A program made the translations under genes and the position numbers. Positions 1,420 through 23,770 of a DNA stretch of 39,245 bases are shown piece after piece. This DNA is from a virus. The DNA lies in the IMG/VR virus record IMGVR_UViG_3300045988_032692. One strand, written 5' to 3'. The notes below the pieces were generated by a model, which worked only from the letters and a program-made list of their open reading frames with translations, made no database searches and had not been told where the DNA came from. The number at the start of each line of letters is the position of its first letter. The first letter of the stretch is position 1.

Positions 1420-1487
1420 TTCTGTGAGTATCGACACGGAGCCGATCATTTTCGTGAGGTCACGAAAAAGCTCAATTTGTGGATTTG

Positions 1488-2249: not shown

Positions 2250-2300
2250 TTTGTCGTACTCCTTGAAGAAAATATATTATCAACCGTGGCCACGGATTGA

Positions 2301-2528: not shown

Positions 2529-2967
2529 TGTGGTGTTCCTCCTTCTTGTTCTCCGCGCCAGCCGCCGCCAGCGCGTTCACACGCGCTTCCATCGCTTCAA
2601 ACTCCCTTCGGGTGACAAATTCCCCGCTGGCCGGGATGATCGGCTGTGCGGGCGTCCTCGCGCCCGTGCGCTCCGTGTAATCCAGAACCCGCATGGACGG
2701 AACGCCGGATGCGTCCACGCTCTTGATATAAATGCACGGGTTCTCGCTATCCCACAGAGGAACCGTGTTCCCCGCCGCGACGAGGTAGCTCTTTGCGCCC
2801 GCGTCACCCTGTACCCAAATCATGCTCTGGGCAGGCTGCGGCATTTGCGCCATAGGCTGGGGCGGCTGCTGCGGTTGATACTGTTGGCGAAGCTGCATGA
2901 GCTGGTCTTGCATCGGCGGCTGATAAAATGGTTGGTAGCTCATCGGCGGTTGGTACTGTCCATACAT
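2509..2967 (-). CDS. Protein with Gln/Pro-rich N-terminal low-complexity region, small beta domain and helical tail (144-152 aa)
   Basis: ORF track. An alternative start at 2943 forms an ATGA overlap with the upstream stop. Core motif IWVQGDAGAKSYLVAAGNTVPLWDSENPCIYIKSVDASG. Confidence 0.65.
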   Translation of the reverse strand: MYGQYQPPMSYQPFYQPPMQDQLMQLRQQYQPQQPPQPMAQMPQPAQSMIWVQGDAGAKSYLVAAGNTVPLWDSENPCIYIKSVDASGVPSMRVLDYTERTGARTPAQPIIPASGEFVTRREFEAMEARVNALAAAGAENKKEEHHNAESTV

Positions 2968-4578: not shown

Positions 4579-4830
4579 TTATGTACTCCCTTCGTCGTCC
4601 GATTTTTTTGCAAATACTCTCTTCGCAAGGAGCATCAGCAGCTCCCCGCCAAACGCCGCTACGGCGAAGGTCAGGATGTCGGAAAGGTCTATGTCCCTGT
4701 CCATCACCAGTGCTGCGGTTTTGACCATCGCCGCCCAGAGCAGGACGCCAAACAGCACCCAGATGCAGAAATACACCAGCTGCCGTGCCATCTTCCCCTT
4801 CGTCAGGCGGCTTTTCCGGATGCGCCTCAT
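4579..4830 (-). CDS. Second holin-like membrane protein (83 aa, two TM)
   Basis: ATGA overlap with the XhlA-like stop. Basic N-terminus, two hydrophobic helices, acidic tail. Confidence 0.6.
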   Translation of the reverse strand: MRRIRKSRLTKGKMARQLVYFCIWVLFGVLLWAAMVKTAALVMDRDIDLSDILTFAVAAFGGELLMLLAKRVFAKKSDDEGST

Positions 4831-5123
4831 ACAATCCCCGCATGAGCCAGCGCAAAGCCGACCAGCGCCCCCACAATGGCTGTCACAGTCGCCTTGACTA
4901 GCGCTTCCCATTTCCCGCCCGGAATGGCCTTGAGGCTCTTCACGTCGTCCTTGATCTCGCTGATATTGGCCTCGATCGTCTCCTGCTTCGTCGCCAGCAC
5001 CTCTACCGAGGTCGCCAGCTGATGCAGGGCTTTGTTGTCTGCCTCCAAATCGTCAATGCGGTGCGTGTTGCTCTTGGATCGCTGGTCGATCTCCACGATC
5101 TTTGCCTGAATTCCATCATCCAT
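4827..5123 (-). CDS. xhlA: XhlA-family lysis-associated membrane protein
   Basis: N-terminal coiled coil (RIDDLEADNKALHQL...), then W-containing linker and a C-terminal TM. PBSX-like xhlA-holin-amidase order. Confidence 0.7.
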   Translation of the reverse strand: MDDGIQAKIVEIDQRSKSNTHRIDDLEADNKALHQLATSVEVLATKQETIEANISEIKDDVKSLKAIPGGKWEALVKATVTAIVGALVGFALAHAGIV

Positions 5124-5134
5124 ATTCTTTCTCC

Positions 5135-5383
5135 TTATTTCGGTTTTCCAACAACGTACTCAACAATGTAAGTTCCGGATACACGGCAGATTTTAACTCG
5201 ATCTCCCGCACTGAATGTAACGGAAGTGTTGCATTTATAGTGCTTTGCGGTTGCCTCTGTCTGCCCGTCAAAGATCAGCGACAGTCCATCGGTATACTTT
5301 GCGCCAACGGTCGCAAGCATAAATTCAGGTTGTGGCTTCTGCGCCGTTTCGTCTGTATCAAAAAAACTCGTCACGCCAATCAT
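5135..5383 (-). CDS. Small tail-module protein (82 aa), function unknown
   Basis: Start at 5383 gives an ATGA overlap with the upstream tail-protein stop. It is the last structural ORF before the lysis genes. Confidence 0.55.
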   Translation of the reverse strand: MIGVTSFFDTDETAQKPQPEFMLATVGAKYTDGLSLIFDGQTEATAKHYKCNTSVTFSAGDRVKICRVSGTYIVEYVVGKPK

Positions 5384-8473: not shown

Positions 8474-9775
8474 TTAGCCGCCTCCCATTCTGCTGGTTCT
8501 GCGCTGATTTTGCGCGATGTTTACAACATCGTTAAATTGCTGCACGTTTGACGAATCAATGTTGATGTTGTAATTATTCGTCGTGGAATTGCTCGCCGAG
8601 TAAGGCACATACTTCCCGGTTCCAGCCTCAATATAACCACCCGTTCCAGTCCATCCGCCTGCGGATTCACTATAAGACGTGCTCTTGAGCGTATCTCCAT
8701 AGACAACCTTCTGATAGGTAGATAACTGGCCCTTCGAAACATTCATACCGAGTGCCGTTCCGATCCGGTTGAAATCCCATGTGAAAATACCGGCTACGAC
8801 GTTCGCAGCATCAGCAATTAACGCGAGCACTTTTGCGACAGGATCAAGAGCAACCTTCAATGCCGGGAGAAAAGTCACGATCAGATCTGCGAGCGGGTCG
8901 AGCAATCCAACTGCAATTTCGAGGATCGATCCGATTGCCTCAATGAGGCCAGAATCGTCAAGGGCCTTTGAGACTTTATCGATAAACTGCATGCCTGCAT
9001 CCATAACCGTGATGAATGTTGGGGTCAGTTTATCGAGGAAATTGTTTTTCAGTTCTTGGAACTTCTCGCCGAGTTTCGCGGTCGATTCCTGCAGCTTCAC
9101 CTGATTTTCGCGTGATTTGATTACCTGCTCGTTATTTTTGTAGAAAGAATCCGCCGCATCGGAATATGTACCGGACAGGGTATTCATGATCAAGCTGTTC
9201 CGCTCCGCCTCGCCGGAGCAATTCGCAAGTGATTCATTGAAGTCATCCTCGGAAATACCGGCCCAGTTCAACGCATCCGCCAGAACGCCCGTTACCTGTC
9301 CAACCTTTGCCGTCTCGTTTGCGGCCTCAATAAGTCCGTTGATGGGCAGCGAATCACCGAACGTGCCGTTTACACCAGCGGCGATATTCGTCCACGTTGC
9401 GAAATCTTCTTGGTTGCGTGCCAGTTTCGCCATGAGCTGCGCTGTTTCTGTGGCGGTATCCGTGTCACCTAGGATTTTGTAAAGGCCAGTGTAAGCCTCC
9501 TGTGCCGTCTCAGCACTATATCCGGCGGTTTCAAACGCAGTATTTAGTTTGCCCTGCGCCACGATGTACTCGCTAGTGCTCTCAATCACTTTCCCGATTG
9601 CATCAACAACCTTCGTGATTGCTGTTTGCGCTACCGCAAAACTTTTCGCAGTCATTTTTGACGCTTTCTCGACGTTGTTCTTCCATGATGTTGTTTTCTT
9701 CTTCGCGGAATCCATTCCATCATCCACGCCGGATGAATCGGCTGTGATCTTCACCACAATATCCAGTAAATTCAT
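8474..9775 (-). CDS. Tail tape measure protein (433 aa)
   Basis: Position after the G/GT chaperones. Long alpha-helical Ala/Leu/Lys-rich sequence. ATGA overlap with the chaperone T-frame stop. Confidence 0.85.
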   Translation of the reverse strand: MNLLDIVVKITADSSGVDDGMDSAKKKTTSWKNNVEKASKMTAKSFAVAQTAITKVVDAIGKVIESTSEYIVAQGKLNTAFETAGYSAETAQEAYTGLYKILGDTDTATETAQLMAKLARNQEDFATWTNIAAGVNGTFGDSLPINGLIEAANETAKVGQVTGVLADALNWAGISEDDFNESLANCSGEAERNSLIMNTLSGTYSDAADSFYKNNEQVIKSRENQVKLQESTAKLGEKFQELKNNFLDKLTPTFITVMDAGMQFIDKVSKALDDSGLIEAIGSILEIAVGLLDPLADLIVTFLPALKVALDPVAKVLALIADAANVVAGIFTWDFNRIGTALGMNVSKGQLSTYQKVVYGDTLKSTSYSESAGGWTGTGGYIEAGTGKYVPYSASNSTTNNYNINIDSSNVQQFNDVVNIAQNQRRTSRMGGG

Positions 9776-10071
9776 TCTTCCACCACCAATCCACACCGCC
9801 GCACAATATCAGCTGTAATTTCCTCGCAAGAGCGCGTGTCTTCTTTCTTCGGCCGCAATATTTCATCAAGATCCGACTGCATATACCGTCCGCCCACAAG
9901 TTTTGCAGTGTTCTCTGTTAAAACTCTGGCACAGCGCGACATATAATCATCAAACAACCACTTTTCCCTCCGCTGCCGAATCAAAACGGGCAGGAGCCGA
10001 ATGAGTGCGGGCGCTGAAATTTTCGGCGCATCCAGAAGGGAGAGTGTTACTCTTTCCCCTCCGATACGCAC
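9772..10071 (-). CDS. Tail assembly chaperone, T extension (expressed as a G-T fusion by -1 frameshift)
   Basis: This ORF is in the -1 frame relative to 10047..10409 and is open from the slippery site onward. It has no RBS of its own. Confidence 0.7.
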   Translation of the reverse strand: MRIGGERVTLSLLDAPKISAPALIRLLPVLIRQRREKWLFDDYMSRCARVLTENTAKLVGGRYMQSDLDEILRPKKEDTRSCEEITADIVRRCGLVVEE

Positions 10072-10409
10072 GATGAGAAAAAATCAATGAGTTCCTTGTC
10101 CTGCGCGATCTCCCGGATTTGCCGCAGCGTCTCCACGATCTTCTGCTCCCGGATGTCATCGACATTTTTTTCGTTCAAAACTGCAAGGATGCCGAACACG
10201 TCTTCTCTATGGTTTTTCAGAAGCATCGGCACCCACTGGCTGATGCGATTTGCCGCCATTGCATATTTCTCTGCAACGGTTTTCGCTTCCTTTGTGTTGA
10301 GTTTCAGGGATGTGATGACATCCTCGTCGCTCGTGATATTGAGCAGGAAAACGGAAATCTCGCACAGCACATCCGCCGCGCGATCCGTACTCAGTTCAGA
10401 AAGTTTCAT
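10047..10409 (-). CDS. Tail assembly chaperone G (120 aa)
   Basis: Lies between the major tail protein and the TMP. Acidic helical protein that ends shortly after the slippery heptamer. Confidence 0.8.
   Translation of the reverse strand: MKLSELSTDRAADVLCEISVFLLNITSDEDVITSLKLNTKEAKTVAEKYAMAANRISQWVPMLLKNHREDVFGILAVLNEKNVDDIREQKIVETLRQIREIAQDKELIDFFSSCVSEGKE
10077..10083 (-). other. Programmed -1 ribosomal frameshift slippery heptamer T_TTT_TTC
   Basis: The minus-strand zero frame reads GAT TTT TTC (D F F). A shift by -1 enters the frame of ORF 9772..10071 (checked by coordinate modulo 3). Confidence 0.7.
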
Positions 10410-10418
10410 GTTTCCTCC

Positions 10419-11009
10419 TTATGCGTCCGCCTCGCCAGCTTTGATGTAGATTTCATACGGAACTCTGGTCTGCTCCGCCATTGCGAAGTGTGCCGTGTAC
10501 TCAAACGCAAACTGGCCCTTTTTCTTGTCGCTGGTTTTCATCTGGAATCCGCCGGTAGAGAGTGCGTTCATCATGTGGATTGCGATGAAGCCGCCCTTCT
10601 GCTCGCCGTTTTTTTCAGAATAGTCACCGACGATCCAAAGATCATCGAAATCAGAATCGGCCAAATCAAGACGCGGAACGATCTTCGTAGAATCCTGTGC
10701 GTCAATGTCCGCCGTAGCAATCAGAGACTTCGCAACGGCGGCGGACATGGTGACAAACGTGCCGCTGGCCTTCGCCTCAATGGATTCCTGACGCTTCAGT
10801 TCCTTCATATTCTTGGGGCAGTTGTCAACGTCATCACCATAATCGGAAAACGTCGGCATAGCGGTGAACGTGACACCTCCGGTTGTCGCGCCGAGCTGGT
10901 CAGCGGCTTTGAACGTGCCAGAAGCCGGGGTGAAATCTTTCAGAATGATGCCCGCATTGATCTGAAGCTCTTTGAACGTATCGGCGGGGATCTTCGTAAA
11001 CTTTGCCAT
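10419..11009 (-). CDS. Major tail protein (196 aa)
   Basis: Position immediately upstream of the chaperones. Size and beta-rich composition typical of siphovirus tail tube proteins. Confidence 0.8.
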   Translation of the reverse strand: MAKFTKIPADTFKELQINAGIILKDFTPASGTFKAADQLGATTGGVTFTAMPTFSDYGDDVDNCPKNMKELKRQESIEAKASGTFVTMSAAVAKSLIATADIDAQDSTKIVPRLDLADSDFDDLWIVGDYSEKNGEQKGGFIAIHMMNALSTGGFQMKTSDKKKGQFAFEYTAHFAMAEQTRVPYEIYIKAGEADA

Positions 11010-11024
11010 ATAAAATCAGTCCTT

Positions 11025-11393
11025 TCAGTTGGGTGTGATAAATTCGGCGGTGATATTGAGATACCGCCGTTTGACGTTTGGTTCAGAATCGTCTTTAATC
11101 GCCTGACACCACGGAGTGCCGCGTTTCAGCCAAATCGCGCCCTCGTCGCAAGAAACAAAAACGCCTCCCATTCCAATAGCGTCCGCAATCTCCTGTGCCT
11201 TTGCATTTGGGGTAGCTTCGCTCTCGGTGTAATACCAGAGGTTTACCGTGATTGTTGATTCTCCGCTGTCCCATGCTCCGAGAATAAGATCATAGGTCAA
11301 CCACGGAAAAACGGCGTCCCCCGGCACGGAGGGCGCCGGATAGGCGGGGAGAAACTGGCCGAACCATGCGTGTAATGCTTTATCTTTCGTCAT
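11025..11393 (-). CDS. Tail completion / tail terminator-like protein
   Basis: Position between the head-tail joining genes and the major tail protein. ATGA-coupled to the upstream gene. Confidence 0.55.
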   Translation of the reverse strand: MTKDKALHAWFGQFLPAYPAPSVPGDAVFPWLTYDLILGAWDSGESTITVNLWYYTESEATPNAKAQEIADAIGMGGVFVSCDEGAIWLKRGTPWCQAIKDDSEPNVKRRYLNITAEFITPN

Positions 11394-11740
11394 GCCGGTA
11401 ACTCTTTCCTTTCCGCCGTAAAATATTTTAGAGTGAAACTTGCGGAGCGTGGCGCTTGCTTTTCTTCCGGGTTTGACGTTACTCTGTACGTCGTACCGGT
11501 TTCTGTGTCCCGGAAATAGTCGCCGTACTCAATCGGCACAGCCTTGTCAACGAGCGCCGAGTAGACGCTTGTAACGCCCTCTTTCTCTGCACGACGGGCC
11601 TGCATGGACGTGTCTAGCGCTTGATAGTTCGAAAACGCAGCGCCCTCCGTCCATGTGGTAACATATCCGCCAGCACCGTCCGGCTCCCTGTGTTTCTCCA
11701 TGAGCACGCAAGGGCGGGCGAAGTCATTCAAAAGGCTCAT
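11390..11740 (-). CDS. Head closure / head-tail adaptor protein (116 aa)
   Basis: Start at 11740 gives an ATGA overlap with the upstream stop. Position and size typical of this role. Confidence 0.55.
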   Translation of the reverse strand: MSLLNDFARPCVLMEKHREPDGAGGYVTTWTEGAAFSNYQALDTSMQARRAEKEGVTSVYSALVDKAVPIEYGDYFRDTETGTTYRVTSNPEEKQAPRSASFTLKYFTAERKELPA

Positions 11741-12150
11741 AATTTCCTCCACTGATTCAATCTGCCGCGGAACGCACTCTGCCACGTCACTGCGCCGCCA
11801 GTTTTCTCATCCGTCGCCCGTGAGTAAGAATACCCGCCGAACGATTCCGAGCTATACGGTGACGCCGCTGTGTCGCCGTTCTTGGCTTGCCACGCCTCGA
11901 TTTCTGCATCAAGGGCCAAGACGGACGGCGGTATTGCAAGTGCCCACACAGCGCCGTCAAACGCCTCGTCCGTTAACCCATAGGCTGGGTATTGATGCAC
12001 ACCGTCGTTGAACGTCGAGCCAAGAATCCTAAAATACTGTCCTTCCCGAAGAAAAGGAAGCGCAATACTGCCATTTTCTACGGTGAAGGTTCCGGCATAC
12101 CGTTCACGGTCAAACCAATTCCTCAAATGTCCGCATAATTCTGTCAGCAT
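11737..12150 (-). CDS. Head-tail connector (gp6-like) protein
   Basis: First gene after the major capsid protein. Size typical of this role. Confidence 0.55.
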   Translation of the reverse strand: MLTELCGHLRNWFDRERYAGTFTVENGSIALPFLREGQYFRILGSTFNDGVHQYPAYGLTDEAFDGAVWALAIPPSVLALDAEIEAWQAKNGDTAASPYSSESFGGYSYSRATDEKTGGAVTWQSAFRGRLNQWRKL

Positions 12151-12165
12151 TGCGCCCCTCCTAAA

Positions 12166-13305
12166 TTACTTTACGGTAACGGTTGCGTTGCCGGATTTCA
12201 GCGCGTGGAAGTTGCCATCGCACTCAACAACAGTGACCTTGTGGCCGCTCGTGATGGTGAGATCAGACTTTCCATCCCAGTCATTCCAGCTCTGCACGTT
12301 CTCTCCGTATACAACGATGGGAGCCGTGGTTTCCGCCGACTTATACTTGTACTTGTTGCCCTTTGCGGCCTTCGCCGGGGAAACAGTCAGCTTCGTGTCG
12401 CCGGTAGCGGTGCCAGCTGCGGACGTCACGGTCAGCGCACCAAGTGTACCGTTGTCGATCGAGCCGACAACAACACCATCAAGGCGCTCTGCAAACAGCA
12501 CCATACCATTGACGACCGTGTCAGATGCGGTCATGTTGGTGTAGTCCGGCTGCTCATGAATACCGATATAGCCGGTCGCGTCGGAAGTAAACGCAAACGC
12601 TTCGTTGAGGTCGGCACCATTGACCGGGATGTAGTAGAGGACGATGTTGTCCTTCGCGGTGGCGTAAATCTTGCCCTTCGGGACGCTGGAATTGAGAATC
12701 ACCGTGCCGAGGCCGAGGAAGTTCTCGACGTAGGTCATGCCGAACGCGGTCTGAAGCGTGATGTTCGCGCTCGCCAGATAGTCTGCGACATCCAGCGGAT
12801 TGAGGAAGTAGACCGCGCCGATCTCGTCGTCCTCAAAGAGCACCTGAAGGTTGCCCCACGCCTGCGCAAGCACGCTCTGGAAGTCCTTACCGGACACAGC
12901 GCCGGAGCCGGTCGCGAGGAAATCGAAAAAGCTCTTACGGATGCTGCGCTGCACATCGCGGAGCATTTCGGTAGTAGTCATTTCGACCGCCTGATCGTAA
13001 CCGCGATCGGTGATCGCCTCGGCGGACGTGGCCTTGCGCCACTTTTTGAGGGTGATCTCAGCATAGTTCACAGGCTCGACTTTGTAATGAGACAGCGGGA
13101 TGGTCTCGCCCTCACCGACATCGCCGCTCTGCAAAGTACCGCTGGCCTTGTAGGCTTTGAGCACGGTACCAGCCTGCTTTGGAATCTTTCTGGTCACGCC
13201 GAGCGCCTCGACGAGCTTCTTGATGGAATAGCCGAACTGATCGACAAACTCCATTTCGCGCTCACGCGCAAGATCATTTTTCTTGATAAGGTTAGTTTCA
13301 GCCAT
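12166..13305 (-). CDS. Major capsid protein with C-terminal Ig-like (Big_2-type) domain
   Basis: 379 aa, directly after the scaffold gene. The C-terminal ~95 aa (LTVTSAAGTATGDTKLTVSP...GNATVTVK) has a bacterial Ig-like pattern. Confidence 0.85.
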   Translation of the reverse strand: MAETNLIKKNDLAREREMEFVDQFGYSIKKLVEALGVTRKIPKQAGTVLKAYKASGTLQSGDVGEGETIPLSHYKVEPVNYAEITLKKWRKATSAEAITDRGYDQAVEMTTTEMLRDVQRSIRKSFFDFLATGSGAVSGKDFQSVLAQAWGNLQVLFEDDEIGAVYFLNPLDVADYLASANITLQTAFGMTYVENFLGLGTVILNSSVPKGKIYATAKDNIVLYYIPVNGADLNEAFAFTSDATGYIGIHEQPDYTNMTASDTVVNGMVLFAERLDGVVVGSIDNGTLGALTVTSAAGTATGDTKLTVSPAKAAKGNKYKYKSAETTAPIVVYGENVQSWNDWDGKSDLTITSGHKVTVVECDGNFHALKSGNATVTVK

Positions 13306-14057: not shown

Positions 14058-14471
14058 TTACGCATTTTCAAGCGCGTTTTTAATGATTTCCCTATACTCA
14101 TCCGCGTGGTCATTCAGTGCAGGCTTCAGAAACGGTTGTGCTTTATTGCCGCGCGTATAATGCCAATTTCCTTTTGCATCCTGATACACCCACGGTGTTT
14201 GCCTGCCTCCATCATAATAGATGCCCGTTCCAAGTTCAACGTAAGCGCCATATTCAAGCGGTGTTCCGACGTGAACAGCCTTTTCAGATGGGTACACCTG
14301 ATGCGTTATGCTGTTGCGGAGCGCACCAGTATCAACCGGGCAGAGCATCGCGGCATATGATTCGCACTGAATCCCGCACGTTTCAAGTGCGCGGAGCAGA
14401 GCTTCTGAAATTTCCTGTCGAACTTCTTCGCTGTGATCATCGATTTCGATTTGCAGACTGTCCGCTTCCAT
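14058..14471 (-). CDS. HK97 gp10-family phage protein
   Basis: Motif CPVDTGALRNSITHQV...GTPLEYGAYVELGTG is typical of the HK97-gp10-like family. Confidence 0.75.
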   Translation of the reverse strand: MEADSLQIEIDDHSEEVRQEISEALLRALETCGIQCESYAAMLCPVDTGALRNSITHQVYPSEKAVHVGTPLEYGAYVELGTGIYYDGGRQTPWVYQDAKGNWHYTRGNKAQPFLKPALNDHADEYREIIKNALENA

Positions 14472-15438
14472 TTTTCTTCATCCGCTCCCATTCCTTGTAT
14501 GTGATATTATCCACGACGACATTTTGACCATTTTCGTCCCGGATGCGACGTTTTGCGCGGAACTCTACGCCGTTCACGAGCTGGATCATACGGCAACGGC
14601 AATTATAAACCTCTGCAGGCTTTCCACGCGGGTCACCGGGGAAGCGACAACCATTTGAAAAAACATCATCATAGTCAACCGTCTCTCCGTCGAGATGCGC
14701 ATGCGAACTGCGCGTTCTTCCGTCAAGCGTGGCGACCCACTGCTTCTTTATTTCGATCCCCATTTTGTGTGCGGCCTCGCACGCATCCTGACGCCCCGCA
14801 TTCTGCGCACCAGTTACAGCTGTTCTTGCCGTTCTGATCGCAGATTCTCTATCCATTGTATAGATTCTGGATTGGAGATCGTCCGCGATCCCGCCGATGC
14901 TCTTCCCTTGCAGGATGGAACTTGTCACGCTGGCCGTGATCTGCCTGCGCCCATACGCAAGATCAATGCCGCGCTTTACGGCCCGTTTTGGTGGGTAGTA
15001 TGGCATAAGTTCTGGATTCTCGATAAGGAGCCGACGCACCGTGGCTTCATTCCACAAGGTAAAATCCACGTCCGCGCCTGTCTGCTCGATCTGATACGCC
15101 GAATAATTCCGGTTCAGCGAATAGATGCCAGGTGTCGCATCGTTGACATACGCAACGGCGATCTCATGTGCTTTCGTGATTCTCTCTGCACATTTATCGC
15201 GAAGCGCCGAAAATCGTTTTCCGCGCCCTATTTGTGCCAGCCTCCATTGTGTGTATTCCTGCTGCGTAACCTCTCCAGACTCAACACGTTTTTTCTCTGC
15301 TTCGTCCCGTAAACGGAATTGTTCGAAATATGCCTTGATGGTTTTATCAAGCTCGCGCTGTGCAGCACGGTATGCAGATGAAATTTTTTTTTCGAGCTTC
15401 TGAAGCTCTTTGTCCGTCATTTTATGCCCGTAGTCCAC
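14437..15438 (-). CDS. Head morphogenesis protein, SPP1 gp7 / Mu F family
   Basis: WVATLDGRTRSSHAHLDGE...VYNCRCRM signature. GTG start at 15438 with GGAGG 6 nt upstream. Confidence 0.9.
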   Translation of the reverse strand: MDYGHKMTDKELQKLEKKISSAYRAAQRELDKTIKAYFEQFRLRDEAEKKRVESGEVTQQEYTQWRLAQIGRGKRFSALRDKCAERITKAHEIAVAYVNDATPGIYSLNRNYSAYQIEQTGADVDFTLWNEATVRRLLIENPELMPYYPPKRAVKRGIDLAYGRRQITASVTSSILQGKSIGGIADDLQSRIYTMDRESAIRTARTAVTGAQNAGRQDACEAAHKMGIEIKKQWVATLDGRTRSSHAHLDGETVDYDDVFSNGCRFPGDPRGKPAEVYNCRCRMIQLVNGVEFRAKRRIRDENGQNVVVDNITYKEWERMKKNGSGQSANRNR

Positions 15439-15453: not shown

Positions 15454-15891
15454 TTACACTTCCGTAAAGTACAATCCCACCAGCTCATGAGGCAGGAACT
15501 GAAGCGTCACCTTGCCGCCCGGCTGCTCGCCCGTCCGTTCGCAGCGGTAGAGCTTGCCGTCCTCCGGATCGATGTAATAGAGGCCATAGGTGTACTCCAT
15601 GCCCTTTGCGGCGGGGATGGGGTCGTCCTGTGTGCCCGCGTGGGTCTCGTCGATGACGGTAAACAGCGCCGGGACTTTGTCCGGCTCCCAGCCGGTCTGC
15701 GTCGTGTGGGCCTGTGTCACGCGATAAAGCCTGTCCGCATAGACCAGCCGGTCATCCACTTTGACGGCCATATCCGGCGCCCAGCGGTCGTACAGCTCCT
15801 TTGCCTTCACGGCGTCCGCATCCGTCAGACTGGCTGAAGCCTTGACGATATAGGGGCGCAATGCTCTAGCTCTTTCTGTGTAGGTCATCAC
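15454..15891 (-). CDS. CBM5/12-like (chitin-binding-type) repeat protein, 145 aa
   Basis: Two W/Y-rich units (DRLYRVTQAHTTQTGWEPDKVPALF and GKLYRCERTGEQ). This pattern usually accompanies tail-fibre genes. ATGA-coupled to the upstream gene. Confidence 0.5.
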   Translation of the reverse strand: MMTYTERARALRPYIVKASASLTDADAVKAKELYDRWAPDMAVKVDDRLVYADRLYRVTQAHTTQTGWEPDKVPALFTVIDETHAGTQDDPIPAAKGMEYTYGLYYIDPEDGKLYRCERTGEQPGGKVTLQFLPHELVGLYFTEV

Positions 15892-16136
15892 CCTGCCTCC
15901 CCAAATATGATTCCTAGTGCCGTCTCAGCGTCTTGCAAACGTTCTTCTGTAGTCATCTCCGGCGTTTCAATCGGCGTTTCTGTCTCTGTGTAGGTATACG
16001 GTGCGCCCTCAACATCGATAGCCTCTGCATATTCCACACCAGTCTCAGTCTGCCGAATCATCATTCCTGCATCGGAATAGGTGCGATATAGCTTTACGCC
16101 GTCTTTGCGCTGTGTATAAAATTCTCTTTGAATCAT
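15888..16136 (-). CDS. Small hypothetical protein (82 aa) following the LRR gene
   Basis: Start at 16136, 2 nt after the LRR stop. MIQREFYTQRKDGVKLYRTYSD... Confidence 0.55.
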   Translation of the reverse strand: MIQREFYTQRKDGVKLYRTYSDAGMMIRQTETGVEYAEAIDVEGAPYTYTETETPIETPEMTTEERLQDAETALGIIFGEAG

Positions 16137-16138
16137 TT

Positions 16139-17515
16139 TTACACCCCCACGATATAGCTTGCATAGGTTGACCAGTTTGTAGCTGCTTTCCATGTATCCA
16201 CAAGTGCCGCTGGAACACGGATTTGACAGTCTGCGGCGATTTCTTGGAAAGCAGTGGTGCTTGAAAGGGCCGGTACTGACGTGTGATTGCTGAAATCATA
16301 AAAAGCAATACCGCCACAATAGTAGAACGCATAAGTTTTAATGCTTGTTACCCCATTTGGAATTGTAATCGACGCAAGGGATTCGCAATTAGCGAACGCG
16401 GAACTTTTAATGGTTGTGACTCCATTTGGAATTGTAATCGATGCAAGGGAGACGCAATCATCGAACGCATAATTTCCAATGTCTGTTACTCCATCAGGAA
16501 TTGTAATCGATTCAAGGGAATAGCAATAGTAGAACGTCTGACGTCCGATACTTGTTACTCCATCAGGAATTGTAATCGACGCAAGAGACCTACAATTGTA
16601 AAACGCAGAACCTCCAATGCTTGTTACCCCATTTGGAATTGTAATCGATGCAAGGGAGCTGCACTCGCTGAACGCACTATCTCCGATACTTGTTACACCA
16701 TCAGGAATTGTAATTGATGCAAGGGGACAGCAATAGTAGAACGCAGAAATTTCAATGCTTGTTACACCGCTTGGAATTGTAATCGATGCAAGGGAACGGC
16801 AATTGCGAAACGCCTGATTGCCAATACCTGTTATACCGTTTCCAAGTTCGATTTTCTGTACACTGTTTTGGTAAACGGAATTACGAGTGTCGGAACCAGA
16901 TGAATACCGAAGAATTGAACTATACGATTCATCTTCAGAGTCGCTATTCAAGCCCATCGTTCCATCAACCGTCAGCTTGATCACATACTCGCCCGGTGCG
17001 GCATAGGCGTGATTTGGTGTCCATTTTGAAATTGTTGTGCTTGTACCTGTTAGCGTATCGGGTGTGGTTCCATCACCCCAATCAACCGTAACTGTGCCAT
17101 TCGGGCAAACACCAAGCATTGGAGATGTACGCCCTTCTTCCAGCCGGATATAGACTCTGGTCTTGCCATCATCCGTGATGTACATAGCGCCGACATTCAT
17201 CTTACGATTTGTGGTCTTAAGGTCAGCAAGCGACCAGTTCCAGCCCTGACAGATAAGCCCCTCGTGCGATGGATAATCTGGTAGTGCTGTCTTTGTTGCC
17301 AACTCTTCCAGTGTCCAAGACGTGACAATTGTGCCATCATAGTCATAAAATGTAATGTCGCCTGGTGCGCCTGGTGTGGTGCCGCCAGTCTGAATATTCC
17401 CAATCGCTGTAACAAATCCGTCCGGGTAGACCAGTGGATCAGATGTGCCGCCCTTTTCGCGGATCGCATCTGCTACCTTTTTGAGGTCTGTTTCATTGGT
17501 CAGGTATTCAGCCAT
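16139..17515 (-). CDS. BspA-type leucine-rich-repeat (LRR_5) protein with PKD-like domain, no signal peptide (458 aa)
   Basis: Eight 23-aa repeats SLASITIPxGVTSIGxxAFxxCx. PKD-like TVDWGDGTTPD...HAYAAPGEYVIKLTV. Fibre-type N-terminus LKKVADAIREKGGTS. Confidence 0.9.
   Translation of the reverse strand: MAEYLTNETDLKKVADAIREKGGTSDPLVYPDGFVTAIGNIQTGGTTPGAPGDITFYDYDGTIVTSWTLEELATKTALPDYPSHEGLICQGWNWSLADLKTTNRKMNVGAMYITDDGKTRVYIRLEEGRTSPMLGVCPNGTVTVDWGDGTTPDTLTGTSTTISKWTPNHAYAAPGEYVIKLTVDGTMGLNSDSEDESYSSILRYSSGSDTRNSVYQNSVQKIELGNGITGIGNQAFRNCRSLASITIPSGVTSIEISAFYYCCPLASITIPDGVTSIGDSAFSECSSLASITIPNGVTSIGGSAFYNCRSLASITIPDGVTSIGRQTFYYCYSLESITIPDGVTDIGNYAFDDCVSLASITIPNGVTTIKSSAFANCESLASITIPNGVTSIKTYAFYYCGGIAFYDFSNHTSVPALSSTTAFQEIAADCQIRVPAALVDTWKAATNWSTYASYIVGV
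16316..16795 (-). repeat. About seven tandem 69-bp coding repeats (LRR units)
   Basis: The core GGAATTGTAATCGAYGCAAGGG recurs every 69 nt (near 16352, 16421, 16497, 16566, 16634, 16704, 16773). In frame, one LRR unit per repeat. Confidence 0.85.
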
Positions 17516-17712
17516 TAGAAGCTACCTCCATTCGCGTTTGCGATCTTTGCAGCCGCCCATGCACCGGACACAACACGCAGAAACTTTCCATTGTCAGCAG
17601 TAGTGACCGCGGGCAGCTCCTTCGTGCCCCATGCGACCTTGTTGTTCTGGACGTCAGACACCGCCTGATCGATCTCTGCGCCGGTGTGCGCACTGTTGTA
17701 CTGGTCTGCCAT
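17515..17712 (-). CDS. Small fibre-associated protein (65 aa)
   Basis: YNSAHTGAEIDQAV and LPAVTTADNGKFLRVVSGAW motifs are common at tail-fibre N-termini. 1-nt overlap with the LRR gene start. Confidence 0.6.
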   Translation of the reverse strand: MADQYNSAHTGAEIDQAVSDVQNNKVAWGTKELPAVTTADNGKFLRVVSGAWAAAKIANANGGSF

Positions 17713-17716
17713 AAAA

Positions 17717-18094
17717 TCACTCCTTCATGCAAAGAAATTCCTTGCCGTCTGCCATCAGCATGGTCTTTGTCGTGCCGGACGGCACAAAACCATAGTTATC
17801 ATTCCAACTTCCGTCCGCCCCCTGTGCGTATAGAGAAATTCTGTATTCTCCGTCACCATTCAGGAGGAAATCGTCGTAGACCTCAAAGGTTCGCTCCGTC
17901 CCCGCCGGGGTCTGGGAAAAGGACGCGATGAGCGCCCCTTTCCCTCGCCCCCAGTCCTCGCCGGTTTTCGTCGCGCGGCACTCGAAAGCCTGATACGCGA
18001 TGTCCGATGAGAACTTGACGGTGATGGAATCGAAACCGGAGACTGCCGAAATCTTATTCCCTGTGATGGTGAACGTCAGTCCCGGCGCGGCCAT
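17717..18094 (-). CDS. Beta-sandwich domain protein (125 aa), paralogous to the C-terminal half of 18094..18756
   Basis: Shared pattern ISxVSGFD...FSxD...GDG...AxGxW. Start at 18094 overlaps the upstream stop by 1 nt. Confidence 0.6.
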   Translation of the reverse strand: MAAPGLTFTITGNKISAVSGFDSITVKFSSDIAYQAFECRATKTGEDWGRGKGALIASFSQTPAGTERTFEVYDDFLLNGDGEYRISLYAQGADGSWNDNYGFVPSGTTKTMLMADGKEFLCMKE

Positions 18095-18756
18095 TATGCT
18101 ACGCTCCAAGTCCCGGCGGCGTTCCGCACAAAGACCTTGATGATCTTCGTGCCGTCGCCGGAGGAGGCCGTCGCAAGGTCGGCACCCTTAATGGTGGTAT
18201 TGATCGCCGTGGCCTTCTTGTAGCCGCCAGCCGTTCCGCTGGTGTTGCTGGAACCGCCAGTGGTGGGAATCTGCGTACCGGCGTCGTGGAGGCTGCTGGT
18301 GCTCGGAACAACACGCACCGTGTATTCCTCGAAGTCCACGTCGCAGGTGAAGGAGAACGCGCAGGTGTCGAAGCCGGAGACTTTGGAGATCCTGGTCTTG
18401 TCGGGGCCAGTGATCGTTATCACCGGAACTGCCGTGTTGACCGTGATAGACGCTGTGACCGCAGCCGTTTCGTTTCCGACGTCATCCCGCACCTTGATAT
18501 GCACGGTTTTCAGGCCATCGCCTTCCGTCAGGACGATAGACTTGCTGGCCGCGAAGGTTTCCCACGATGCGTCCTCTTCCGTTGCTGCCGCCTTGATGCC
18601 CCAGAGCTTCATCTGGTAGCCGGTCTTGGTTTCATCCGTCAACGTGATCGTTGCGGTGACGGTGTTGCTGGTTGCATACGTCGCACCGCTGTTGAGCTTT
18701 AAGGCAAGCCCAGCCGGTGCCAGCGTATCAAGAATTAGATTGAAAAAACTTGCCAT
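18094..18756 (-). CDS. Two-domain Ig-like / beta-sandwich protein (220 aa)
   Basis: N-domain W..F..SKSIVLTEGDGLKTVHIKVRDDVGNE is a typical bacterial Ig-like repeat. The C-domain is paralogous to the next ORF. Confidence 0.65.
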   Translation of the reverse strand: MASFFNLILDTLAPAGLALKLNSGATYATSNTVTATITLTDETKTGYQMKLWGIKAAATEEDASWETFAASKSIVLTEGDGLKTVHIKVRDDVGNETAAVTASITVNTAVPVITITGPDKTRISKVSGFDTCAFSFTCDVDFEEYTVRVVPSTSSLHDAGTQIPTTGGSSNTSGTAGGYKKATAINTTIKGADLATASSGDGTKIIKVFVRNAAGTWSVA

Positions 18757-18759
18757 AGG

Positions 18760-18903
18760 TTATGCCCCTTTCTTTTCGTTCAGTTCGATGTATAAATATC
18801 CGCCCGGGCGGGTATAGATGGGTTCTTCGCCGATGCAGGCATTCTTGATGCCCATCTCACCGACAAACAACTCCTTTAGCTGTTCTTCTCCGACTGTGAT
18901 CAT
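18760..18903 (-). CDS. Possible 47-aa ORF (below the track threshold)
   Basis: Hand-translated MITVGEEQLKELFVGEMGIKNACIGEEPIYTRPGGYLYIELNEKKGA. It exactly fills the gap between two ORFs. Confidence 0.4.
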   Translation of the reverse strand: MITVGEEQLKELFVGEMGIKNACIGEEPIYTRPGGYLYIELNEKKGA

Positions 18904-18907
18904 TCCG

Positions 18908-19093
18908 TCACCCCCGAATCAGATACAGTGTCTTTGCATCCTTGACGGCCAGTGCGTCATATTCTGCCCGGTCGAGGACTACAATGGTGTTGATCTGCGC
19001 GGATGAGACGTTGCCGCCGCCTGATACCGGAACCGTTTTAGCCTGTTCGACTTTTAACCTTACCGGTTCACCTTTCACTTTCAGTCGGATCAT
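18908..19093 (-). CDS. Small protein (61 aa) with fibre-type xxEYDALxxKDxxTLYLI motif
   Basis: The C-terminal DRAEYDALAVKDAKTLYLIRG motif is recurrent in phage fibre proteins. ATGA-coupled. Confidence 0.55.
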   Translation of the reverse strand: MIRLKVKGEPVRLKVEQAKTVPVSGGGNVSSAQINTIVVLDRAEYDALAVKDAKTLYLIRG

Positions 19094-19410
19094 TGGTACC
19101 CCTCCGTTTTCAGGAGGTCTTCCACATCAACCTCAAGTTTTTCTGAATAGTCCGGTGTGCCATTTTCCCTTGTAAATGCGAATTGTACCATGCACGGCGG
19201 AGATTTCAGGCCATTCACAATTTTCTTTGGTGTCAGCTGCATTGCATCCTCAAATGGGATGCGGACAACCATCGTTTTTTCGTCCACAATTTCAGGGGTA
19301 TACTGAAAAAACTTATTTGCCTGACGGACGTAGAACTCTGGTTTCGAAATCGTTGTGAGATCCACACCATCGACAGTCACGGCCAAATCATTCCTGATCT
19401 TGGATTTCAT
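19090..19410 (-). CDS. Beta-rich hypothetical protein (106 aa), first gene after the portal
   Basis: Start at 19410 with RBS GGAGGTGG. Overlaps the portal 3' end by 23 nt. Confidence 0.6.
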   Translation of the reverse strand: MKSKIRNDLAVTVDGVDLTTISKPEFYVRQANKFFQYTPEIVDEKTMVVRIPFEDAMQLTPKKIVNGLKSPPCMVQFAFTRENGTPDYSEKLEVDVEDLLKTEGYQ

Positions 19411-20766: not shown

Positions 20767-22035
20767 TCATAACGCTAAATCCGGAATCCATTCATGCGGC
20801 TTAAACGCCCGCCGCAGAACCGTCATGGCAAAATAGCGTGTTTCGTCCATCGCGTGGTCGTTCTCTTTGACGGGTTTGTCGTTGTCCTGCTTCTCGTCCC
20901 AGCGGTATAGGCCGAACTCTCGGATTGTAGCGGCGCACCGACGATGGATTATGATTTTCCCGTTAAGCAGATAATCAGCCACACAGCGGATTCCGTTTGC
21001 AACATCGTTGTTCGCTTGCCGCACCTTGAACCCGCTGCGCCGCCGTAGCGCCTCGATAAACGACGCCGCAGACGGGTCAACAATAACCGCAGAAATGGCG
21101 CGTGCGCCCGCCAGCGCCGCCACCATATCACAATATTCCTCGTCCGTTTTCTGCTTCTTCAGCTCGCGCCCGTTGTAATAGACCTCATTCACACGGACGG
21201 CACGACCATTCCCAACACGCCACAGGCCAGCAGAAAAGGGATTCATGGTGCCATAGTCGATGGAGATGTACCACTCGCCGCTGTCCGGTTCCTCGTCCGT
21301 GATACACTGCTCTCCGAACATGGGATAGATCAAACCCTCCGCAATGCACCGCTCACCGAGGATGTCCCGGCGATACCAAATACTGCCCGTGTCATACTGC
21401 GCTTCAATTTCCGCCAACCGCTGCGGCGTGATCGTCGCATTGTCCCGGATGGTGAAATGCTGGTAGTTGTACCGCGCGCCCATGCTCTCTGGGAATTTAT
21501 CGATGTAGTGCTCATATATCCAGTGGCCGGGTGCCGATGGGTTCAAATCCCAGAACACCCGCCGAACCCGCGCCGCGAGCTGCCGGTTGAACGCTTCCTT
21601 GATTGTATCCTCATGGTGAAGGTTGATCTCGGTTGCAATCCACATCCCATAGGAGTTGCCGCGAATCTTCTTGAAGCTGTCCGCTTTCGCACCGCCCGCG
21701 AATATCACGACGTAATCCCGCTTATGTGAGCGGATAACCAGTGCTTCATTGCCCTTATACTTCGTCCACCGGCAGCGGCCACGGAAAAGATACTCCAATC
21801 CGTAGCCGTTCGCGTCCCCGATGTTCAGTTTCGCGTTTGCCGCTGTGGAACCTGTCGCAAGGTGGATGCGGTCAGGCGTCCCTTTCTCGATCAAATAGGC
21901 AAATGCCGCAATGTTGTCGATGGTCTTACCGGCCCGGACGGCGCCCTCCGCTACGGAAATCGTCGCCCGCGTCGCCGCCGCGATATATGCCTTATGCTTC
22001 TCGCCGAACGCCGGATGAAGCGTCTGCGTAATCAT
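20767..22035 (-). CDS. terL: Terminase large subunit (PBSX/Terminase_3-like)
   Basis: Walker A-like GAVRAGKT. Start at 22035 forms an ATGA overlap with the TerS stop. The N-terminal 73 codons of the track ORF are judged non-coding. Confidence 0.9.
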   Translation of the reverse strand: MITQTLHPAFGEKHKAYIAAATRATISVAEGAVRAGKTIDNIAAFAYLIEKGTPDRIHLATGSTAANAKLNIGDANGYGLEYLFRGRCRWTKYKGNEALVIRSHKRDYVVIFAGGAKADSFKKIRGNSYGMWIATEINLHHEDTIKEAFNRQLAARVRRVFWDLNPSAPGHWIYEHYIDKFPESMGARYNYQHFTIRDNATITPQRLAEIEAQYDTGSIWYRRDILGERCIAEGLIYPMFGEQCITDEEPDSGEWYISIDYGTMNPFSAGLWRVGNGRAVRVNEVYYNGRELKKQKTDEEYCDMVAALAGARAISAVIVDPSAASFIEALRRRSGFKVRQANNDVANGIRCVADYLLNGKIIIHRRCAATIREFGLYRWDEKQDNDKPVKENDHAMDETRYFAMTVLRRAFKPHEWIPDLAL

Positions 22036-22370
22036 TTGATGCCCGCCTCCGCCAAATACGCGGCAGTGTCCTCCATATCGACCGATTCCTCCGGGTTGTC
22101 CTTCTGGCCTAGATACTGCTTCCCGAGCCAGATTGCCATGTTTGCATTTTTCTCCGCCAGTCTCCACTGGCTTCTTCTGAGCGATATTTTCCCGGCTCCA
22201 CGCTTTTGTTTGAAAACTTCGTAAAAACCAGCACCATAGGTACGTTTGCACCATGCCTCAAGCGTTTTATCTGCTACACCGAACCAGCCGCAGATTTCCT
22301 CAAGCGTGCATTGCAGGCCGCATAGATTCTCGAACTGCTTTTGATCTATCTCCTTTTTCGGCCTTGCCAT
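22032..22370 (-). CDS. terS: Terminase small subunit
   Basis: 112 aa with an N-terminal HTH. RBS AAGGAGGG. Directly upstream of and coupled to TerL. Confidence 0.8.
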   Translation of the reverse strand: MARPKKEIDQKQFENLCGLQCTLEEICGWFGVADKTLEAWCKRTYGAGFYEVFKQKRGAGKISLRRSQWRLAEKNANMAIWLGKQYLGQKDNPEESVDMEDTAAYLAEAGIK

Positions 22371-22465: not shown

Positions 22466-23659
22466 TCAATCGTCATGGAGCAATACCGCCTTTTCTCCTG
22501 TGAATTTCTCCCACCGATCAATAATGACATCGGCATACTTCGGATCAAACTCCATGCAATATGCGTGTCTCCCGTTCTGCTCTGCTGCCATGATCGTTGT
22601 GCCAGAACCAGCAAACAGGTCAAGAACATTCTCGCCCGGTTTACTCGAGCACTGCATCTGATAGTCAAACAGCTTAATCGGTTTCATGGTCGGATGCTCT
22701 GCCGATCTCACCGGCTTATCAAAATTGAGAACAGTGGTCTGCTTTCGGTTTTTGAAGAAGTAATGCTTATGGCCTTCCGTCCATCCATACAAGCACGGCT
22801 CGTGCTCGTCTTCTTCAATCTCGCTCTCGCCATAGAGACAAGGTTCATGCTTCCATTGGTAATCCTGCCGCCCCATGACCATGCTGTTTTTTACCCAAAT
22901 CAAGCACTGCCTTACTCGGAGCATTGCGTCTCTGCACGCCCCACGGAAGTTATACCCTTCGCTATCGGCGTGCCAGATGTAGAACGGAGCACCCGGCTTC
23001 ATTACCATTGCCGCATTTGAGAATGCATCTGTGAGGAACCGTCTAAAAGCTGAATCCTCCATGTTATCGTTTATAATCTTGCCAGCGGTTCCCTTGTAGC
23101 CCACATTGTAGGGAGGGTCAGTGAGCAGCAAGTCCATCTGCACCCCCCCTACGAGCTTTTGTACGTCCGTCAAGGACGTACTATCTCCGCACATCAAGCG
23201 ATGGTTCCCGAGTTGGTACACATCACCAATCTTGCTTTTTGGCTCCGCAGGAAGAACAGGATTATAGTCATCCTCAATAACAGAGTGGTTTAGCTCGTCG
23301 CGAAGTCCCCAGTCAAAGTCAAAAGCCGACAGGTCAAGTCCAGACAGCTCCTCGGCCAGCAAATCAAAATCCCAATCGCTTTCGTTGCTCTTGTTGTCCA
23401 CCAGCCGGAGGGCGTTCACTTGTTCCGGCGTCAAATCGTCCATACTGACACACGGCACCTCGTCCATGCCGAGCTTCTTTGCAGCCAGCGCGCGGCAGTG
23501 ACCGATGATAATCACATCGTCGCGGTCTACCACGATCGGCTGCACAAAGCCATACTGCCGGATGCTCTCGGCTACATTGGCGATTTGCTTTTTGTCGTGC
23601 TTTTTCGCGTTCCCCGGATATGGGGTGAGTTCAGATAATTTTCTGTTTTGTACGTTCAT
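22466..23659 (-). CDS. ParB-like nuclease domain fused to a beta-class N6A/N4C DNA methyltransferase
   Basis: ParB-N pattern (NPGNAKKHD...IIIGHCR). DPPY motif before the C-terminal FAGSGTT SAM motif. Start at 23659 with RBS AAGGAGAAACA. Confidence 0.9.
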   Translation of the reverse strand: MNVQNRKLSELTPYPGNAKKHDKKQIANVAESIRQYGFVQPIVVDRDDVIIIGHCRALAAKKLGMDEVPCVSMDDLTPEQVNALRLVDNKSNESDWDFDLLAEELSGLDLSAFDFDWGLRDELNHSVIEDDYNPVLPAEPKSKIGDVYQLGNHRLMCGDSTSLTDVQKLVGGVQMDLLLTDPPYNVGYKGTAGKIINDNMEDSAFRRFLTDAFSNAAMVMKPGAPFYIWHADSEGYNFRGACRDAMLRVRQCLIWVKNSMVMGRQDYQWKHEPCLYGESEIEEDEHEPCLYGWTEGHKHYFFKNRKQTTVLNFDKPVRSAEHPTMKPIKLFDYQMQCSSKPGENVLDLFAGSGTTIMAAEQNGRHAYCMEFDPKYADVIIDRWEKFTGEKAVLLHDD

Positions 23660-23770
23660 TGTTTCTCCTTCCTCTTCCTTCTCCTTGGAGCTACCCGCCA
23701 AACTCCAAATATCCCGCATAAAGCACACCAAATACAAAAAGGAGGTTCCGCAGATTCCGCTGCGTAGCCG

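Follow-up and report, generated by a model that had tools for sequence, protein, structure and literature searches.

The 39,245-nucleotide (nt) stretch of viral DNA analysed here (IMG/VR virus record IMGVR_UViG_3300045988_032692, hereafter the window) is the genome of a temperate siphophage whose late genes all lie on the minus strand. Its portal gene and its MuF-type head-morphogenesis gene are kept apart by nine tightly packed minus-strand open reading frames (ORFs; 19410–15454, designated genes A–I) that form a predicted fibre cassette. Comparison with related contigs establishes the gene content of the cassette, its relocation and breakpoints, the swapping of its modules and the purifying selection acting on its genes. 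The same cassette type usually stands at the tail end of the late operon, and a move at exact gene boundaries into the portal–MuF junction of the window lineage is well supported by the gene-order and identity comparisons below. We favour, with about even confidence, the reading that A–I encode a portable host-recognition fibre or adhesin of the virion, likely a baseplate-accessory fibre at the tail tip.

Evidence for relocation from the tail end

We surveyed 92 loci carrying homologues of gene D, comprising 80 from IMG/VR, two GenBank gut-virome contigs and ten GTDB loci from Oscillospiraceae metagenome-assembled genomes and the isolate Flavonifractor sp. An82. The D homologue of An82, on contig NZ_NFHG01000017, is 68% identical. 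Genomic contexts were called by tblastn with the window proteins, and the IMG/VR loci come predominantly from one large gut dataset. The cassette occupies the tail end in 63 of the 92 loci, following the tape-measure gene, the genes at the Dit and Tal positions and a small ORF, and preceding the holin and lysin genes. Another 17 loci have it between portal and MuF; the remaining 12 are too short to place. The tail-end position holds an 81-amino acid (aa) ORF alone in the window (sm82).

The tail-end locus L010 provides the nucleotide-level comparison. Its proteins D, E, F and I are 98%, 96%, 90% and 91% identical to those of the window and are followed by a holin (87–90%) and a lysin (93%), whereas its Tal-position protein is merely 57% identical and its major capsid protein 37%. 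Over genes B–F, window positions 19021–17384 match L010 with 93% nucleotide identity (blastn). The end of the cassette, L010 13027–13480 (gene I), corresponds to window 15907–15454, and the adjoining L010 13480–13785, with a ribosome-binding site and the holin gene, corresponds to window 5136–4831. Because these adjoining L010 segments map to window positions 15454 and 5136, the right breakpoint coincides exactly with the gene I stop codon. By the same alignment, the sm82–holin junction of the window is the vacated cassette site. The left edge of high identity with tail-end cassettes lies inside gene B, at 19021; in comparison with those tail-end cassettes, the N-terminal part of B and the whole of gene A are peculiar to the window lineage. 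An earlier note on this DNA had proposed, as one possibility, a host-recognition module transposed into the head genes. Gene order, the identity over B–F and the breakpoint at the gene I stop bear out the transposition, and the receptor-binding role at the tail tip is the part that we infer.

The placement between portal and MuF is a trait of the whole lineage. Among 20 IMG/VR relatives with a MuF protein 97–98% identical to that of the window, 18 have the order portal, A to I, MuF, and the other two are truncated and consistent with it. In those relatives whose contigs reach the tail end, the holin gene comes immediately after the small ORF. With the contigs added by a survey of gene A, the arrangement is shared by 22 IMG/VR contigs of several datasets and by GenBank MT835551, from Mexican faecal samples, and this recurrence rules out a one-off assembly artefact or chimera. 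The arrangement is not unique to the window: the synteny comparison found it in all close relatives, the very outcome that had been named beforehand as speaking against novelty.

Flavonifractor phage Chenonceau, taken as outgroup (47% identity to the window in the portal and 59% in MuF), has overlapping portal and MuF genes and carries its fibre genes at the usual site after the tail tip. Portal and MuF are adjacent in most of 80 Chenonceau-like loci, and 13 of the 80 carry unrelated inserts of 1–1.5 kb at this junction. The inserts in L235, L244, L251, L264 and others (approximately positions 9300–10700) encode a 208–214-aa protein and glycine-rich proteins (‘MGGRGSGSG...’) of 119–138 aa.

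A distal swap slot with matched adaptors

Conservation within the lineage declines along the cassette: A is 98–100% identical, D 94–98%, F 48–96%, G 73–96% or replaced, and I 47–94%. The cassette has, in other words, conserved proximal parts and a hypervariable distal part with exchangeable binding domains. The slot after F is filled by LRR_5 proteins of 321–482 aa with varying repeat number, by DUF6273 proteins accompanied by extra small genes, or by others, one of which carries a Phage Tail Collar domain. These G-slot variants are common to both genomic contexts. DUF6273 has a C-type-lectin fold and is the diversified domain of receptor-binding targets of diversity-generating retroelements (DGRs) in gut phages (PMC10743442, PMC11792537). 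In the window, we found no DUF6273 domain and no reverse transcriptase among the larger ORFs that would indicate a DGR.

Judged by eye, the LRR protein of the window and a DUF6273 protein likewise encoded after an F gene have N-terminal adaptors that are approximately 80% conserved. Locus L095 has genes for an 80-aa and a 195-aa protein in place of the stem genes B–F. The LRR body of G in this locus is 96% identical but carries a different adaptor, similar to the N-terminal end of the protein now encoded upstream. Such matched adaptor switching points to a physical chain of subunits, each probably joined to its neighbour through a matched adaptor.

A second candidate hot spot of host range is the Dit-position protein, whose identity spans 43–100% in relatives that keep 94–99% identity in the tape-measure and Tal-position proteins. 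Its variable part is the N-terminal half, and the protein is a possible ‘evolved Dit’. By inspection, Dit-position variants and G variants appear to vary independently within the lineage, which gives no help on localisation. This variability qualifies the suggestion that the usual slot for a receptor-binding protein is empty in the window: the 81-aa ORF does stand alone before the holin, but the hypervariable Dit-position protein is itself a host-range candidate.

Gene content and composition of the cassette

Matches to SPP1_portal and Phage_Mu_F place the nine ORFs between portal and MuF, as the earlier note had it. The coupling it described is also seen, with neighbours in A–I overlapping by 1–23 nt or separated by gaps of 2–15 nt and their starts preceded by GGAGG-type ribosome-binding sites. 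Against homologues from dozens of related contigs, genes A–F, H and I have median dN/dS values of 0.03–0.20, which indicates purifying selection. The small cassette ORFs are real genes because they evolve under this selection; the ORFs of 47, 61 and 65 aa are still open in relatives at merely 40–60% protein identity. A scan for sigma-70-type promoter consensus and for terminators gave eight promoter-like and five terminator-like sites against 7.0 expected of each, and none of them frames the cassette. Independent transcription of the block was rejected, there being no excess of promoters or terminators inside it.

Several products are Ig-like, in agreement with the earlier proposal of beta-sandwich proteins. 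The AlphaFold model of D has two beta-sandwich domains (pLDDT 91) and finds fold matches in tandem FN3/Ig proteins, in adhesins of bacteria and in the string of FN3 domains at the T5 tail tip. Homologues of D form 2009 clusters in a collection of 5.8 billion proteins, the nearest cluster alone holding 1317 sequences. The model of A is a single beta-sandwich (AF2 pLDDT 83). A profile search with the A family in 1.84 billion representatives returned mostly stand-alone proteins of approximately 100 aa and Big_13-type repeats of giant adhesins, and none of its matches was a fusion of A to portal, Dit or Tal. Gene E matches the C-terminal domain of Bacillus phage lectins (CP-51 gp162 residues 217–307, E-value 4e-10). 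The ‘EYDAL..TLYLI’ sequence of gene B, read in the earlier note as a fibre motif, proved to be the motif of Phage_tail_C. Searches of PDB sequences with D and B gave nothing significant.

Gene G encodes the 458-aa leucine-rich repeat (LRR) protein that the earlier note described as an LRR and PKD protein without a signal peptide. The repeats are beyond doubt a match to LRR_5 (247 bits against a cut-off of 27.7, E-value 3.8e-74), with ‘ITIP’ recurring every 23 residues, seven times, and structural-genomics LRR proteins of gut bacteria in the PDB match at an E-value of 6e-55. The PKD assignment is sub-threshold: residues 141–192 score 23.6 bits with PKD_4 (cut-off 27) and 19.8 bits with PKD (cut-off 23.5). 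None of the nine proteins has a signal peptide, a hydrophobic N-terminus or a transmembrane stretch. The N-terminus of G is hydrophilic, with a highest Kyte–Doolittle value over 15 residues of 1.48, and G lacks the secretion signal and surface anchor of BspA-like bacterial adhesins. The last gene, I, encodes the carbohydrate-binding module (CBM) protein predicted earlier, its CBM_5_12 match at residues 37–77 scoring 35.5 bits against a threshold of 26.2.

The low GC content noticed for the LRR gene held up in both GC and codon analyses. GC is 0.44–0.45 in windows of 16001–17000 against 0.56–0.60 in the flanks, and the low-GC island coincides with the 69-nt tandem array of G. The LRR part of G has a GC of 0.435 and a GC at third codon positions (GC3) of 0.36, compared with GC3 values of 0.74 for D, 0.69 for E and 0.77 for I. 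This foreign composition, together with the use of the G slot as a swap site in relatives, supports the recent acquisition suggested before: the LRR body would be an import into a high-GC3 cassette.

Distribution of related cassettes

Homologues of A with 41–57% identity always open a cassette that ends in H-like and I-like genes. These A-type cassettes occur on at least three tail types: the siphophage type with Dit, Tal and small ORF, another siphophage type (L143, L038, L062) and a myovirus-type baseplate (L178). L143 and L145 have the whole cassette in common, at nt 9979–13134 in both and with 89% nucleotide identity. The shared stretch begins 13 nt upstream of the A start codon and ends with the stop codon of I, and A, B' and a 195-aa protein are 98–99% identical. 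When eight A clusters were looked up in public assemblies, five adjoined a portal gene and three were at the tail end. I-like CBM proteins adjoin endolysins in Corynebacterium phages.

Phages of Bacillus carry a further, conserved cassette, made up of a small ORF, a D homologue (47% identical), an Ig-like protein, a protein of approximately 100 aa and a ConA-like lectin with an E-like Ig domain. It is found at L003 8808–11439 (Izhevsk gp193–189), L004 8853–11398 (CP-51 gp158–162) and L087 3808–6437 (Tsamsa gp214–210). In these sipho- and myophages, the cassette sits after the lysis genes or within a replication region. The paper on the Tsamsa virion proteome provides no localisation, the D-homologue cassette not being among its six identified bands.

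Where the cassette proteins may act

We infer that the cassette proteins are incorporated into virions, attach there and bind a receptor. On the favoured reading, a baseplate-accessory fibre at the tail tip, A–I would be cotranscribed with the late operon and coupled in translation. The Ig-like or beta-sandwich and adaptor proteins A–E would build the proximal stem, the A–F stem would dock on a ring of the virion, and F would pair with the approximately 45-residue adaptor of G. G would expose an exchangeable PKD-like/LRR surface to a ligand of the host cell envelope, a part taken by a DUF6273 or Collar-domain protein in relatives. H and I (CBM5/12), as the conserved terminal pair, may serve as an accessory glycan binder or an assembly factor. 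Cassette fibres on the Dit/Tal tail tip would set host range together with the hypervariable Dit-position protein, and host range could shift by recombinational replacement of G with its adaptor, by gain or loss of LRR repeats and by replacement of I. The position of the genes would be irrelevant to their function, and for this reason the block could relocate to the portal–MuF junction and keep exchanging segments with tail-end cassettes of co-resident phages.

A tail-tip location is suggested by the predominant genomic position of the cassette and by several lineages that have no other dedicated receptor-binding gene. It is also consistent with Phage_tail_C in B, a motif shared with gp4 of the Bxb1 tail structure (PDB 9d93), and with the match of the D fold to the FN3 domains of the T5 tail tip. 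Fold neighbours of A in BFVD include a ‘BppU N-terminal domain’ protein (E-value 2e-3), a ‘Distal tail protein’ and a ‘Baseplate component’. Furthermore, siphophage baseplates carry accessory assemblies of several small proteins docked on Dit (PMC13252515).

Several observations weigh against this location. The fold matches of A are generically Ig-like and weak, and the tail-tip receptor-binding role is argued from synteny and domain logic. The D homologues of Bacillus phages lie outside tail modules. L143 and L145 have tails and heads without detectable similarity despite their shared cassette, gene A (99% identical) included, and because they share the whole cassette on unrelated tails no lineage-specific baseplate anchor is visible. 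Finally, when away from the tail end, A-type cassettes stand beside the portal in six unrelated head modules (the five clusters and L174, the window lineage included), a pattern that a structure attached to the neck would be expected to give. As a rough estimate, six of six beside the portal would be very unlikely if placement were random among some twenty late-gene junctions, in a small sample whose events may not be independent.

This portal adjacency bears on the second possibility raised in the earlier note, portal-proximal or head fibres, and the six head modules speak for it. A tentative alternative is that the cassette forms a portal-proximal crown of neck or collar fibres. Gene A would supply an Ig-like collar ring on the connector and B–G whisker-like fibres with exchangeable LRR or lectin heads. 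The hypervariable Dit-position protein, an alternative receptor-binding candidate, would then take over the primary contact with the receptor at the tail tip. The six head modules represent three kinds of junction, and L271 and L275 share the cassette type at 47–77% identity with portals and capsid proteins that do not match. In TP901-1, the gene for the neck passage structure closes the tail module ahead of the lysis genes, at the alternative site of the cassette. The connector of phage Bas63 bears a dodecameric Ig-like collar with whiskers (PMC12609058) and is the best PDB phage match of the A model (9mt4 chains G/H; TM 0.56, root-mean-square deviation 3.1 Å, E-value 0.06), among many generic Ig-like matches. 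However, this fold match is not significant, A being a generic Ig-like domain, and both the Phage_tail_C motif and the BFVD matches point to tail tips. Most cassettes also follow tail-tip genes and are, in several lineages, the sole dedicated receptor-binding candidate. Portability across unrelated tails could be read in favour of the neck, but it does not favour that site because connectors vary among the host phages no less than tail tips.

Somewhat doubtful, in our view, is a broader proposal in which the repeated portal adjacency, seen on both sides of the gene and for SPP1-type as well as HK97-type portals, is functional and the cassette is a self-docking, plug-and-play adhesin crown with swappable LRR or C-type-lectin heads. 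Its Ig-like first subunit would dock on a structurally conserved ring, either the connector or neck or possibly the Dit ring. Docking through a subunit of its own would let the whole cassette pass between phages with unrelated heads and tails.

A Hoc-like decoration of the capsid or tail tube by D and E, which with the LRR and CBM proteins would serve adherence to mucus or other non-host surfaces in place of host recognition, is unlikely. The tandem Ig/FN3 architecture of D, the role of LRR_5 proteins as surface adhesins of gut bacteria and the lectins of the Bacillus D cassettes, encoded outside tail modules, would fit such a function. Tentaclin-type lectin and Ig proteins, which have been proposed as non-host adhesins (PMC10743442), offer a precedent. 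Yet no capsid-binding domain was detected in the cassette, the rapid swapping of distal domains with matching adaptors is typical of host-range determinants, and the cassette usually adjoins tail-tip genes.

A moron acting outside virions, such as a lysogenic-conversion adhesin or a lysis-associated cell-wall-binding complex, is very improbable. BspA-type LRR and CBM5/12 domains are indeed characteristic of surface proteins in bacteria, I-like proteins neighbour endolysins in Corynebacterium phages and the portal–MuF junction takes unrelated accessory inserts in Chenonceau-like phages, but the nine proteins have no signal peptide or anchor, the genes are tightly coupled in the late operon without a promoter or terminator of their own, the cassette family includes Phage_tail_C and Collar domains, and the adaptor co-variation of neighbouring products implies a physical complex.

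Relation to known systems

The tail-tip fibre that we favour would resemble the BppU/BppA/BppL module of TP901-1 and the accessory modules of mycobacteriophages (PMC13252515). In both cases, small beta-rich proteins are encoded in a row, peripheral fibres are formed (a prediction for the cassette), and the distal binding domains can be exchanged while the proximal parts stay conserved; the usual site, between Dit/Tal and the lysis genes, is shared as well. Unlike these modules, the cassette has no members of the BppU, BppA or BppL families, lies between portal and MuF in the window lineage and moves whole, with its first gene, between unrelated tails.

In cluster A mycobacteriophages, genes for minor tail proteins are found at the left end of the genome, outside the tail module. 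Phage Bxb1 gp4 is a precedent for a tail fibre gene near the packaging genes, and its C-terminal ‘..EYxAL..KDxxTLYL’ motif is shared with B, in a weak match (PDB search, E-value 0.72). In contrast to the cassette, gp4 is one 356-aa protein rather than nine genes and is not encoded at a portal junction. The weak match of B to ‘tail collar fibers gp4’ was considered as evidence for a neck location and dropped, 9d93 being the Bxb1 tail.

The collar–whisker systems of Bas63/Sf14, the Fiber-1 and rope proteins of podophage GP4, T4 Wac and the TP901-1 neck passage structure combine an Ig-like ring with small adaptor or fibre proteins, a combination predicted for the cassette as well. Their genes lie with head or neck genes, as does the cassette in the window and five further head modules, most members of the cassette family being at the tail end. 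Unlike these systems, the cassette gives no significant sequence or fold match to them and has no coiled-coil fibritin, and its heads are hypervariable, which those of Wac are not.

Tentaclins and tgt2 (PMC10743442) and the DGR targets of Faecalibacterium prophages (PMC11792537) compare with the G slot of relatives, where a single-domain DUF6273 protein has a short N-terminal adaptor, as in tgt2. The combination of Ig-like proteins and a lectin is shared with tentaclins. Unlike DGR targets, the window has LRR_5 in the slot, no reverse transcriptase was found, and the Ig proteins are separate polypeptides. G itself belongs with the 23-residue repeat family of BspA-type LRR proteins (T. forsythia BspA, TpLRR, PDB 4gt6 and 4fs7), a very strong match. 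It differs from them in having no cell-wall or outer-membrane anchor in addition to no signal peptide, in its phage-type adaptor and in its place in a late structural operon. The Bacillus cassettes of Tsamsa, Izhevsk and CP-51 share with the window the D homologue, an Ig-like protein plus a small protein, and a distal carbohydrate-binding protein with an E-like C-terminus; they differ in that the distal protein is a ConA-like lectin and in their genomic sites.

It is textbook knowledge that tail fibres come in modules, that their domains are swapped and that mosaic breakpoints fall at gene boundaries. What is new is a complete, still-exchanging fibre cassette relocated into the head module, with breakpoints at nucleotide level, and its recurrent adjacency to portals in unrelated phages. 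Also new is the predicted use of a BspA-type LRR as the distal fibre domain in an abundant, unannotated cassette family; a literature search for LRR or BspA receptor-binding proteins in phages found nothing relevant. As a receptor-binding fold, the BspA-type LRR would extend the repertoire of phages. The cassette emerges as an abundant and uncharacterised predicted fibre system of human-gut Oscillospiraceae phages (approximately 2000 D clusters and no Pfam family). It is a discrete mobile unit with exact gene-boundary breakpoints, and its distal slot is swapped through matched short adaptors. We take it to work from within the head module, with a striking preference for portal junctions. The cassette would escape host-range and annotation pipelines that seek receptor-binding proteins solely downstream of the tape-measure, Dit and Tal genes. 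If the portal association were functional, the cassette would represent a new class of neck-mounted adhesins, and if it were a self-docking adhesin crown, a family of universal gut-phage accessory fibres not described before.

Genome context and additional observations

Late genes run in the order TerL, portal, A–I, MuF, HK97-gp10/Neck1-like, scaffold and major capsid, followed by connector genes, major tail protein, chaperones, tape-measure, the Dit- and Tal-position proteins, the 81-aa ORF, two holin-like genes and an amidase (Table 1).

Table 1. Features of the cassette, its genomic surroundings and cassettes at comparable junctions. Coordinates refer to the window unless a locus is named.
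Feature	Coordinates	Strand	Description
Gene A, 106 aa	19090..19410	(-)	First of cassette; stand-alone Ig-like beta-sandwich, distantly like Big_13 repeats
Gene B, 61 aa	18908..19093	(-)	C-terminal Phage_tail_C (PF24243), residues 36-60, 42.5 bits vs cut-off 23.7
Gene C, 47 aa	18760..18903	(-)	Small cassette protein, 40-100% conserved across loci; dN/dS 0.17
Gene D, 220 aa	18094..18756	(-)	Tandem Ig/FN3-like; PHROG 10898 (function unassigned); no Pfam family
Gene E, 125 aa	17717..18094	(-)	One Ig-like domain, related to the C-terminal domain of D
Gene F, 65 aa	17515..17712	(-)	Small predicted stem/adaptor protein 5' of the distal protein; dN/dS 0.20
Gene G, 458 aa	16139..17515	(-)	Distal protein; N-terminal adaptor of ~45 residues, PKD-like, BspA-type LRR_5
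LRR repeat array within G	16317..16837	(-)	69-nt (23-aa) units, 7.1 copies; low-GC island
Gene H, 82 aa from internal ATG	15888..16136	(-)	Conserved C-terminal ‘...ALGIIFGEA’; always 5' of I; dN/dS 0.09
Gene I, 144 aa	15454..15888	(-)	Last of cassette; CBM_5_12 and PHROG 27545; stop codon is the right breakpoint
Integrase	37984-39138		
TerL	20767-22254	(-)	
Portal, 456 aa	19388..20758	(-)	SPP1_portal 117 bits, above profile threshold; 3' end overlaps gene A start by 23 nt
MuF/SPP1 gp7-type head-morphogenesis gene	14437..15438	(-)	Phage_Mu_F 70 bits, above threshold; head-morphogenesis PHROGs
Dit-position protein, 668 aa	6413..8419	(-)	Label positional; no Pfam family, no significant match in PDB sequence searches
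Tal-position protein, 349 aa	5380..6429	(-)	PHROG 1887 ‘tail protein’; label positional; no Pfam family, no significant match in PDB sequence searches
Small post-Tal ORF sm82, 81 aa	5135..5380	(-)	Followed directly by the cassette in relatives
Holin	4827-5123	(-)	Next gene after sm82
Vacated cassette site	4827..5137	(-)	sm82 stop codon, 11 nt with ribosome-binding site, holin-like gene
Cassette of window lineage			SPP1-type portal and MuF junction
Cassette of L174			SPP1-type portal and MuF junction; portal 46% identical to window
Cassette of L119/L276			SPP1-type portal and MuF junction; portal 20% identical to window, long MuF
Cassette of L272			SPP1-type portal and MuF junction
Cassette of L271	L271 3345-6086		Between HK97-type portal and prohead protease
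Cassette of L275	L275 3988-6759		Between TerL and HK97-type portal

Relative to a 422-aa homologue in MT835551, the listed TerL ORF is longer by approximately 73 residues at its N-terminus, and the real start is probably the internal ‘MITQTLHP’. Just upstream of TerL is a gene (22466–23737, minus strand) encoding a fusion of ParB_N with an N6/N4 DNA methylase. The HK97-gp10/Neck1-type tail-completion gene (14058–14471, minus strand) lies between MuF and the scaffold gene, outside the connector block, and occupies the same odd place in Chenonceau.

The region 3' of the lysin (941–2967, minus strand) encodes low-complexity proteins without a family match. They comprise a 253-aa Gly/Trp/Asn-rich protein with a hydrophobic segment, Gln/Pro-rich proteins of 152 and 75 aa, and a 140-aa Ala/Gly/Thr-rich protein.

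A domain like sm82 forms the N-terminus of a 332-aa fibre in GenBank MT836035 (L005 6974–7972, plus strand), for which a PDB sequence search gave nothing significant. This fibre has seven ‘LPxGGTxGQVLxK...YAxxWG’ repeats, and gene F of the window ends in a single unit similar to this repeat.

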